Source of the DNA: an uncultured Chloroflexia bacterium
GTDB taxonomy: Bacteria > Chloroflexota > Anaerolineae > B4-G1 > SLSP01
Direction of reading: 5' to 3'
Assembly: GCA_963751345.1 (NCBI GenBank)
Contig: CAVVUS010000037.1
Span: 111,824 to 175,823, forward strand
Length of the DNA stretch: 64,000 nucleotides
Position 1 is the stretch's first letter. The number at the start of each line of letters is the position of its first letter. Of this stretch, positions 46,273-47,833 are shown piece by piece. Made by a program: the position numbers and the translations under genes. The notes beneath the pieces were generated by a model. It worked only from the letters and a program-made list of their open reading frames with translations. It did not search any database and had not been told where the DNA came from.

Positions 46273-46300
46273 TTGACACCCTCAGGATATCGGGTACAAT
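46273..46300 (+). promoter_or_regulatory. Sigma70 promoter of the lysine operon
   Basis: TTGACA-16 nt-TACAAT. Confidence 0.75.
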
Positions 46301-46321
46301 ATCCCTCATTCAGGAAACTTG

Positions 46322-46372
46322 ATGATGCGACACACGATGTACCTGCGAGGGACGAAGAAGCCGGACCGCTAG
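46322..46372 (+). CDS. Leader peptide 1, MMRHTMYLRGTKKPDR
   Basis: Short ORF after AGGA SD with tandem AAG AAG codons; 3' end inside hairpin CCGGACC-GCTA-GGTCCGG. Confidence 0.7.
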   Translation: MMRHTMYLRGTKKPDR

Positions 46373-46402
46373 GTCCGGAGATTCGTGTTGAAGCAGGACA
46401 CC

Positions 46403-46442
46403 ACCGGCCCTAGTGCAAGCGCACAGGGTCGGTTTTCTGTTA
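46403..46442 (+). terminator. Attenuator terminator 1
   Basis: ACCGGCCCT(A)GTGC-AAGC-GCACAGGGTCGGT followed by TTTCTGTT. Confidence 0.78.
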
Positions 46443-46460
46443 CTTAGGGGCAGGACTGTT

Positions 46461-46541
46461 ATGGCTTCACGACACGCCAGTTGTCTCAATCGCATAGACA
46501 AGAAGTGCAAGTGCAACAAACCAGACACCGGGTCTGGATAG
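46461..46541 (+). CDS. Leader peptide 2, [26 protein letters not shown]
   Basis: AGGA SD; four clustered Lys codons; hairpin CCAGAC..GTCTGG just before stop. Confidence 0.7.
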
Positions 46542-46565
46542 CTGCGCTTGGCACAGTATCTTGCC

Positions 46566-46611
46566 AAAACACCAGCTTCCGGGCCCAGGCCTGGAAACTG
46601 GTGTTTTTGTT
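46566..46611 (+). terminator. Attenuator terminator 2
   Basis: AAAACACCAG-CTTCCGGGC...GCCTGGAAA-CTGGTGTTTTTGTT. Confidence 0.8.
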
Positions 46612-46639
46612 AGCCATAGAAGAGAGGGACAGGAGAGAG

Positions 46640-47833
46640 ATGCCACTGGACGGATTTCACATTATCGAGTCGACGTTGCGAGAGGGAGAGCAATTTGTGG
46701 GAGCCAGCTTCACCACCGAACAGAAGCTGGAGATTGCCCGGCTTCTTGACGCCTTCGGAGTGGAGTGTATCGAGCTGACCTCTCCCTTGGCGTCGCCCCA
46801 GAGTTTCGAGGACGCGAAAGCAATCGCTGCGCTGGGCCTCAAGGCCAAAGTCCTCACACACACGCGGTGTCGCATCGACGACGCACAGCGCGCGATCGAC
46901 ACAGGCGTCGACGGCATCGATGTTGTCATCGGCACGTCATCGCTTCTGCGACGTTTCAGCCACGGCAAGGAAATCGATGAGATCACCGAGATGGCCCTCG
47001 AGGTCGTCGAGTTCATACACACCCAGGGTGTTGAGGTGCGGTTCAGTACGGAAGACTCATTCCGCAGCGAGCCCGACGACATCTTCAGGGTGTACGAAGC
47101 AGTGGACGCCATCGGTGTGAACCGTGTTGGCATTGCCGACACGGTCGGCGTTGCGACGCCGCGCCAGGTCTACGAGCTAGTGAGCGAGCTGCGCCGGCGC
47201 GTATCGTGTGACATCGAGTTTCACGGTCACAATGACGCCGGCTGCGCCATCGCCAATGCCTACGAAGCACTGGATGCCGGGGCGACCCACGTGGATACCT
47301 CGGTGCTGGGCATTGGCGAACGCAACGGCATCACGCCACTGGGCGGCCTCATCGCGCGGCTCTACGCGATCTCTCCTGCGCTGGTGGAGAAGTACGATCT
47401 GCCGCTGCTGCGCAAGATCGACAACACGGTGGCCCAGATGGTGGGAGTGGACATCCCCTTCAACAACTACATCACCGGCATCACGGCATTCACCCACAAG
47501 GCAGGTATTCACGCGAAGGCGATCCTCAATAATCCTGAGACGTATGAGATCCTGAATCCACAGGCCTTTGGCCTCACCCGGTACGTGAGCATTGCCCATC
47601 GCCTGACGGGTTGGAACGCGATCAAGAATCGCGCCGAACAGCTCGGCTTGGCGCTCAGCGATGATGCACTGAAGTCCATCACCGAGCACATCAAAGCGCT
47701 TGCCGACGAGAAGCAGCTCTCCCTCGGTGATGTGGACAGCCTGCTGCGGCGTTGGGCGAATGGGAAGAAAGCTATCAACGATCAGCAATCAGCGGTTGGC
47801 GAACAAGAGCAAGAAGGACAAAGTACGGAGTAG
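46640..47833 (+). CDS. hcs: Homocitrate synthase
   Basis: [66 protein letters not shown]. Confidence 0.95.

Follow-up and report, generated by a model that had tools for sequence, protein, structure and literature searches.

The leader of the lysine operon described here lies in a 64,000-nt stretch of DNA (the window) from an uncultured Chloroflexia bacterium (contig CAVVUS010000037.1, positions 111,824 to 175,823). It probably comprises two ribosome-mediated leader-peptide attenuators that are arranged in series upstream of the homocitrate synthase (HCS) gene hcs and that both sense the supply of charged tRNA-Lys. As judged from their sequence and modeled folds, these tandem units most likely serve to switch the operon on only when charged lysine tRNA is short. 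The order of elements is one consensus promoter, unit 1, unit 2, and the genes hcs-hacA-hacB-hicdh-lysW-lysX-lysK, all on the plus strand. Each unit consists of a Shine-Dalgarno sequence (SD), a short Lys-rich upstream open reading frame (uORF), a small hairpin (regions 1 and 2), an alternative antiterminator pairing (regions 2 and 3), and a U-tailed terminator (regions 3 and 4). A sequence-only reading of the same DNA had proposed the promoter, both uORFs, the hairpins, and the terminators upstream of hcs, and all of these elements were recovered where it had placed them.

The promoter is of the sigma-70 type, with TTGACA (46273-46278) and TACAAT (46295-46300) separated by 16 nt, and matches the consensus at 11/12 positions. 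It is the sole promoter-like site in 45900-47000, where 0.4 are expected from shuffles; the same scan gave no second site between units 1 and 2. Unit 1 starts with an SD (AGGA, 46312-15) that lies 6 nt upstream of uORF1 (46322-46372), which encodes MMRHTMYLRGTKKPDR, contains AAG AAG at 46355-46360, and ends with the stop codon TAG at 46370-72. Directly 3′ of AAG AAG follows the hairpin (46361-46378) of CCGGACC (region 1, 46361-67) and GGUCCGG (region 2, 46372-78), whose loop holds the uORF1 stop codon. It has a folding energy of -14.1 kcal/mol, which 7/2000 shuffles match. This hairpin is the anti-antiterminator and, by the model, probably also a pause hairpin. The antiterminator (46368-46414) pairs GCUAGGUCCGG (46368-78), which takes in the stop codon, with CCGGCCCUAG(U) (46404-14) at -16.3 kcal/mol (5/2000 shuffles as good). 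An alternative pairing of the 5′ arm of the terminator T1 with GGTCCGG had been described before; it is present, and its extent is longer than had been claimed. Because the antiterminator contains one internal U.C mismatch, region 2 prefers region 1 unless the latter is masked. T1 (46404-46441) is formed by a hairpin at 46404-46432 followed by TTTTCTGTT/UUUUCUGUU, with -22.3 kcal/mol. Its run of four T is broken by a C, and it was detected by folding and missed by a simple terminator scan.

Unit 2 repeats this architecture. Its SD (GGGG/AGGA, 46447-55) places AGGA (46452-55) 5 nt upstream of uORF2 (46461-46541), which has 26 residues, four Lys codons (46500-05, 46509-11, and 46518-20), and the stop codon TAG at 46539-41. 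The hairpin is formed by CCAGAC (46521-26) and GUCUGG (46532-37), and the stop codon stands just after it. Herein, the segment with the Lys codons is itself base-paired, its partner being the post-stop sequence GCUGCGCUUGG, so that the hairpin extends to a longer 1:2 helix of UGCAAGUGCA..CCAGAC with GUCUGG..UGCGCUUGGCA (46506-46553; -22.1 kcal/mol; 0/2000 shuffles as good). The antiterminator (46530-46587) pairs GGGUCUGGAUAGCUG (46530-44, stop codon included) with CAGCUUCCGGGCCC (46573-86) at -24.9 kcal/mol (2/2000 shuffles as good). The terminator T2 (46566-46611) has a stem at about 46568-46603, followed by TTTTTGTT/UUUUUGUU, and reaches -31.4 kcal/mol; just its inner part is listed on the plus strand by the simple scan. 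The leader as a whole (46307-46645) folds with -139.4 kcal/mol (z = -6.49), which is equaled by 0/100 shuffles, and all six pairings (1:2, 2:3, and 3:4 in both units) are beaten by just 0-7 of 2000 shuffles. Lys codons make up 2/16 of uORF1 (12.5%) and 4/26 of uORF2 (15.4%) versus 43/1936 (2.2%) in six lys genes of the operon. This enrichment agrees with the earlier proposal that the Lys codons are the sensor.

The switch was examined by folding transcripts truncated at the terminator loop with ribosome masks applied, a comparison that the sequence-only reading had suggested. These folds contained the antiterminator when the ribosome sat on the Lys codons and not when it sat on the stop codon. 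For unit 1 of the window, the antiterminator has a probability P of ~0.9 with the ribosomal A site on Lys-1 and of 0 in the ribosome-free state as well as at the stop. In unit 2, it is the minimum free energy (MFE) structure whichever of the four Lys codons the ribosome occupies (P 0.81), and P is 0.00 at the stop. The same behavior is seen in relatives of the genus. For unit 1, a ribosome on Lys-1 gives the 2:3 pairing with P of at least 0.70 in 18/19 loci (L017 uses another register), a ribosome on the stop gives 0.00 in all 19, and the ribosome-free state gives at most 0.09 in 15 of them. For unit 2, folds were computed for 13 of the 16 loci with the conserved frame; the antiterminator is the MFE structure in 13/13 with a ribosome on the Lys codons, and sequestration of the terminator arm with a ribosome on the stop is at most 0.35 in 9/13.

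From these parts, the following course of events is proposed. Transcription would start a few bases past the -10 box, and a ribosome would load on uORF1. When Lys-tRNA is plentiful, the translating ribosome would reach the UAG inside the small hairpin and cover region 2 (GGUCCGG); because region 2 is covered, the 5′ arm of T1 would stay free, T1 would form, and RNA polymerase would terminate. When Lys-tRNA is scarce, the ribosome would stall with AAG AAG in its A site and cover just region 1 (CCGGACC). The freed CUAGGUCCGG would then pair with CCGGCCCUAG, the 5′ arm of T1, so that T1 is blocked and the polymerase reads on. Polymerases past T1 would transcribe uORF2, which has its own SD, and unit 2 would repeat the test with three or four spaced Lys codons, the antiterminator GGGUCUGGAUAGCUG:CAGCUUCCGGGCCC, and T2. 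Solely transcripts that pass both checkpoints would reach hcs-hacAB-hicdh-lysW-lysX-lysK. Translation of the uORFs, stalling at Lys codons, and a kinetic competition between the pairings would be the working parts of this scheme, and by a multiplicative effect, basal leak and induction ratio would each approximate the product of the two units.

For comparison with relatives, HCS was found in 21/41 related genomes, the one of the window included, and 500 nt upstream were compared at each locus (loci are given as L numbers). HCS identity among these loci is 83-98%. The unit 1 core occurs in 19/21 hcs loci, the exceptions being L019 and L020, and each time forms the 3′ end of a short frame ...KKP[D/G][R/L/H]-stop; uORF1 is kept as well. 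AAGAAG is invariant in 19/19 copies, as are AAGAAGCC and most of the hairpin (29 invariant columns). The unit 2 frame ...K[CSYAT]K[RH]xKPDxGSG-stop is kept in 16/21 loci, and uORF2 is atypical in L014 and L017. In both uORFs, frame, Lys codons, hairpin, and stop are constant, and the N-terminal parts of the peptides vary freely. As judged by sequence, this combination is the signature of a translated sensor and not of a functional peptide. Of the 19 relatives that have unit 1, 18 carry a promoter of the form TTGAC(A)-N16-18-TAnnnT 48 to 55 nt 5′ of AAGAAG, and the remaining one is truncated by the end of its contig. An SD-like tetramer together with an in-frame ATG was counted in 36/51 units, without a control. 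The fixed frames, Lys codons, hairpins, and stops together with this promoter distance bear out the proposal of two leader-peptide attenuators in series, and the comparison of hcs upstream regions, likewise suggested beforehand, gave conserved uORFs and Lys codons. An early RH that had been read as common to both peptides is not conserved in relatives.

Two of these loci show a variant of the second stage. In L012 (2650-2829, minus strand) and L013 (2047-2171, minus strand), a second strong terminator (e.g., AAGCCAGCUCCCGG...GGGGAGCUGGCUUUUU) stands right after unit 1 with no uORF2 before it; this terminator may be what is left of unit 2 or act as a constitutive brake. In L020, a diverged leader is found ~50-190 nt 5′ of hcs (minus strand) with a weak match to the covariance model R2 described below (E 0.025). 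Its ORF of 30 codons contains two Lys codons apart from each other (..TPQKPRPKQG..) and is followed by a strong terminator; the whole may be a degenerate or a different attenuator.

Covariance models were used to trace the family further. R1 was built from unit 1, and R2 was rebuilt on A4, an alignment of 31 diverse matches. In the genome of the window, the R2 matches at E <= 1 are unit 1 (E 1e-15) and unit 2 (E 9e-4), with no others. Because a single model finds both units and nothing else in the genome, they are regarded as paralogues, in line with the duplication assumed before. The hcs operon is the only target found in its own genome with R2; R1 gave one weak extra match, L023 (E 0.31), without a Lys uORF. 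In A4, 97.6% of cells are paired and 12/16 pairs show compensatory changes, which 0/500 shuffles reach, although the alignment was fitted to the model and these pairing figures are favored thereby. Compensatory changes occur in 9/9 pairs of the terminator stem and in 3/7 pairs of the small hairpin, of which 98.6% of cells are paired.

The family extends well beyond the genus. R1 matches 35/151 genomes of an even class sample at E <= 0.01. Among the 29 best class loci, which were inspected, 12 lie before hcs, one before an hcs-like gene (38% identity), and six before lysW-lysX; the other 10 have no downstream lys gene and are mostly plain terminators. In a phylum sample, R2 matches 19/151 genomes at E <= 0.001, and 14 of the 17 new loci stand before hcs in other classes (in one family, 9/9). 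Named hcs loci were examined as the best 80 of at least 595, none of these 80 being from Thermus. A sense-strand R2 match lies upstream of hcs in 32 of the best 80, in one case ~1 kb away, and all 32 are Chloroflexota-labelled records (Anaerolineae, Caldilineaceae, Thermoflexus, Leptolinea, and others). Among the same best 80, hcs loci labelled with other phyla gave R2 matches in 0/12.

Several loci met in these searches deserve separate mention. Two Pirellulaceae-labelled, R2-negative loci, L128 and L138, carry Lys-rich short ORFs (e.g., MFQSKKQFAKKVKRYAF-stop) and terminators ~130-250 nt 5′ of hcs. These uORFs are unrelated to the R2 family, and leader peptides for lysine may have evolved in front of hcs on several occasions. 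In other classes, a conserved ORF of ~32-42 codons follows the attenuator terminator and overlaps with the start of hcs. It is found in one family in L055 (1622-1732), L054, L058, and L061, with the motif ..YTPRYCRPELFGSCQ.., and in another in L060 (1633-1761) and L063 (1642-1749), with the motif ..AAVRPELFxGC... No Pfam family matched this conserved 36-aa ORF, which may encode a coupled small protein or be a further leader. Finally, the cassette in L067 (1501-1602, minus strand; R2 E ~1e-5) has its Lys codons replaced (...SNRSSQQQPDQRSG-stop) and precedes a LysE-type translocator gene (L067:853-1464, minus strand; PF01810, 79.6 bits). The one in L040 (1501-1608, minus strand; R2 E 1.2e-7) has a single Lys codon (...PSPPEPEKPDRRSG-stop) and a terminator without a clear U-tract; the product of its downstream gene, read by eye, begins like a metallophosphoesterase. 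These cassettes before a LysE-type exporter and an unrelated gene hint at re-coding for other signals, and a cassette re-coded for an exporter would require a different logic.

The usual form of the cassette is a single unit with ...K(Q)xK(R)xKKPDxxSG-stop. One R2-positive unit, for instance, precedes hcs in the complete genome of the cultured Leptolinea sp. HRD-7 (L097). Around the genus of the window, R2 finds a second sense-strand unit in 15/21 loci. The doubled form is also present in L071-L074, in L024, L025, L028, and L029 plus, by eye, L026 (two further families), and in two lysW leaders, L036 and L051, in which the tail of the first unit differs (...FKKAKK...). In L026 and L028, both units end with ...KKPDxxSG-stop and have the stop after the hairpin; thus, the in-loop stop of unit 1 in the genus of the window looks derived. 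It is a tentative idea, somewhat short of an even chance, that the KKPD-hairpin-terminator module serves Chloroflexota throughout the phylum as a reusable attenuator cassette and that it was repeatedly duplicated before hcs and lysW into two-stage checkpoints, in which Lys-tRNA is sampled twice independently and the two outcomes multiply to the read-through. If true, duplication of the cassette would give a squared dynamic range and a steeper and less noisy response. Herein, the two stages may be tuned differently, one with two adjacent Lys codons and a stop in the hairpin, the other with three or four spaced Lys codons and a stop after it.

A number of observations weigh against two working switches in series. 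A search for RNA sequencing runs that cover 46200-47400 listed none. No uORF2 is found in L012, L013, and L016, which makes the doubling dispensable. Within the genus, the strands of the antiterminators hardly vary and, therefore, yield little covariation. T2 lacks a run of four T in L003, L007, and L029. In the ribosome-free state, the antiterminator of unit 1 already reaches 0.46 in L007, 0.67 in L010, 0.47 in L011, and 0.26 in L021. With region 4 present, equilibrium folds of the full length retain the terminator in every ribosome state. Hence, the model needs co-transcriptional kinetics, as classical attenuators do; that the terminator wins at equilibrium is also true of the latter. In a cruder test over all lineages, which covered 48 of the 51 units, a strict definition of the switch applied to 27/48, and in the other 21, the 5′ arm of the terminator is also predicted to be partly sequestered with a ribosome at the stop or another part of the definition failed. 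Because of this proportion, support from modeled folding is moderate overall; for the window and its genus, it is good.

That just one unit is a working lysine sensor, with the other being a decaying duplicate or a fixed partial terminator that lowers basal expression, is unlikely. It would fit L012 and L013, which combine unit 1 with a second terminator, and L016 with unit 1 alone, as well as the single units that suffice in most other lineages and the far lower score of unit 2 with the shared model (E 9e-4 versus 1e-15). Against it stand both uORFs, their Lys codons, stops, and antiterminators, which 15-16 of 21 loci retain across the full range of HCS identity, the predicted switch in both units of the window, and the recurrence of doubling in other families and before lysW. 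A further alternative is that the units sense different signals, e.g., that unit 2 reads Lys plus Arg or Cys and the control is combinatorial. The CGC (Arg) codon in the KxKRxK of unit 2 is conserved in most relatives, three Cys codons are present in unit 2 of the window, and LysW systems in some archaea serve the synthesis of both lysine and arginine/ornithine. A single Arg codon, however, is a weak sensor and lies within a segment obliged to pair with GCUGYGCUU, and hcs-hacAB-hicdh is lysine-specific. In relatives, the residue that separates the Lys codons can be C, S, Y, A, or T, and where the window has its second Cys, R is found elsewhere. Because the Cys codons are not conserved, the cysteine sensing by unit 2 that had been suggested earlier is not supported. 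Different signals as a whole are very unlikely.

The phylum-wide conservation of the hairpin with its flanks (AAGAAGCCGGAC...GGUCYGG) goes far beyond the needs of a stem. This would suit a switch that works through RNA alone, as a small riboswitch, or through an RNA-binding regulator attached to the hairpin, with incidental ORFs. Yet the demands of three-way pairing combined with those of coding can account for this conservation, the open frames keep their start, SD, and stop at fixed places relative to the hairpin despite drift of the upstream sequence, and the Lys codons are in frame without exception. In addition, cmscan gave no relevant Rfam match in 45900-46900 at E <= 10, the lysine riboswitch (L-box) and the T-box included, and both were rejected as candidates. 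Such a switch is, hence, slightly less probable still. Finally, KKPD could arrest the ribosome in a TnaC-like manner, with free lysine sensed in the tunnel instead of tRNA charging, and K-K-P-D is indeed conserved at the peptide level across classes. The conservation of P-D is not independent of the RNA because the hairpin arm itself encodes P-D; different Lys-rich tails occur in other lineages (KKAKKTYTPR-stop, IKSKKRNPD-stop), and the sign would be wrong, since lysine-dependent arrest at KKPD would favor the antiterminator and raise lysine synthesis. Of the alternatives, it is the least probable. Two serial attenuators that both read charged tRNA-Lys, thus, remain the preferred interpretation.

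The operon belongs to the alpha-aminoadipate (AAA)/LysW lysine pathway and is led by a lysine-specific homocitrate synthase. The first regulated gene, hcs (46640-47833, start codon ATG at 46640), matches TIGR02146 with 483.6 bits (cut-off 413.55). The remaining genes, hacA to lysK (47943-52919), were assigned by NCBIfam: hacA (47943-49181), hacB (49196-49693), the homoisocitrate dehydrogenase gene hicdh (ending at 50696), lysW (50714-50881; PF21344, 71.5 bits), lysX (ending at 51740), and lysK (51888-52919). The gene upstream of the leader, dusB, sits on the other strand, and T1, therefore, does not serve it. A G+C-rich hairpin (46086-46107) by the start of dusB (minus strand) matches CRISPR-DR28 with 18.3 bits (E 2.9, gathering score 35), which is taken as a chance match.

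The element supplies a regulatory logic for the AAA/LysW pathway in a large phylum whose members are mostly uncultured. The RNA/leader-peptide family that it defines is missing from Rfam and can serve for the annotation of lysine regulons in metagenome-assembled genomes. The natural single and doubled versions before the same genes offer a comparative system for the benefit of serial attenuators, be it in leak, steepness, or noise. No published description of the element in Chloroflexota was found in the literature searched, the coverage of which excludes supplements and subscription journals; both the sequence family and the doubled layout appear to be uncatalogued.

Compared with the classical leaders trpL, hisL, thrL, and leuL, the units share the four-region logic of 1:2, 2:3, and 3:4 pairings and regulatory codons just 5′ of region 1. 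With the enterobacterial attenuators, they also have in common a stop placed so that the terminating ribosome masks region 2 and a U-tract ~80 nt past the sensor codons. Unlike these, they have few sensor codons (two in unit 1, three to four in unit 2), very short peptides, a tandem arrangement, and a different sequence family. Tandem riboswitches and T-boxes consist of two complete sensor-terminator modules in series for the same ligand, which are thought to sharpen the response. The serial arrangement of two complete modules is common to both, whereas in those systems the RNA senses the metabolite or the uncharged tRNA directly, and here the ribosome would be the sensor. In the Salmonella mgtCBR leader, the two leader ORFs are said to answer different signals and to be unrelated to each other. 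The units described here differ from this in being paralogues that are predicted to read the same amino acid, each with its own intrinsic terminator. Tandem ribosome-dependent attenuators as such are reported for mgtCBR (Lee and Groisman 2012, PMC3641672).

The mechanism proposed here is a textbook one, so that the value of the system rests in the family, its spread, and its tandem architecture and not in a new principle. The closest known counterpart is the leader-peptide attenuator that reportedly controls the lysine (alpha-aminoadipate) cluster of Thermus thermophilus. Common to both is the location upstream of hcs of an AAA/LysW cluster, a short leader ORF with adjacent Lys codons, the choice between terminator and antiterminator, and the same predicted signal, namely the supply of Lys-tRNA. 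Unlike in Thermus, two complete units are arranged in series here, and the phylum is Chloroflexota; the likeness is considered a functional analogy only. Judged by sequence and by this analogy, the tandem leader would be a real new version of Thermus-type lysine leader-peptide attenuation that is well supported by the comparative data.

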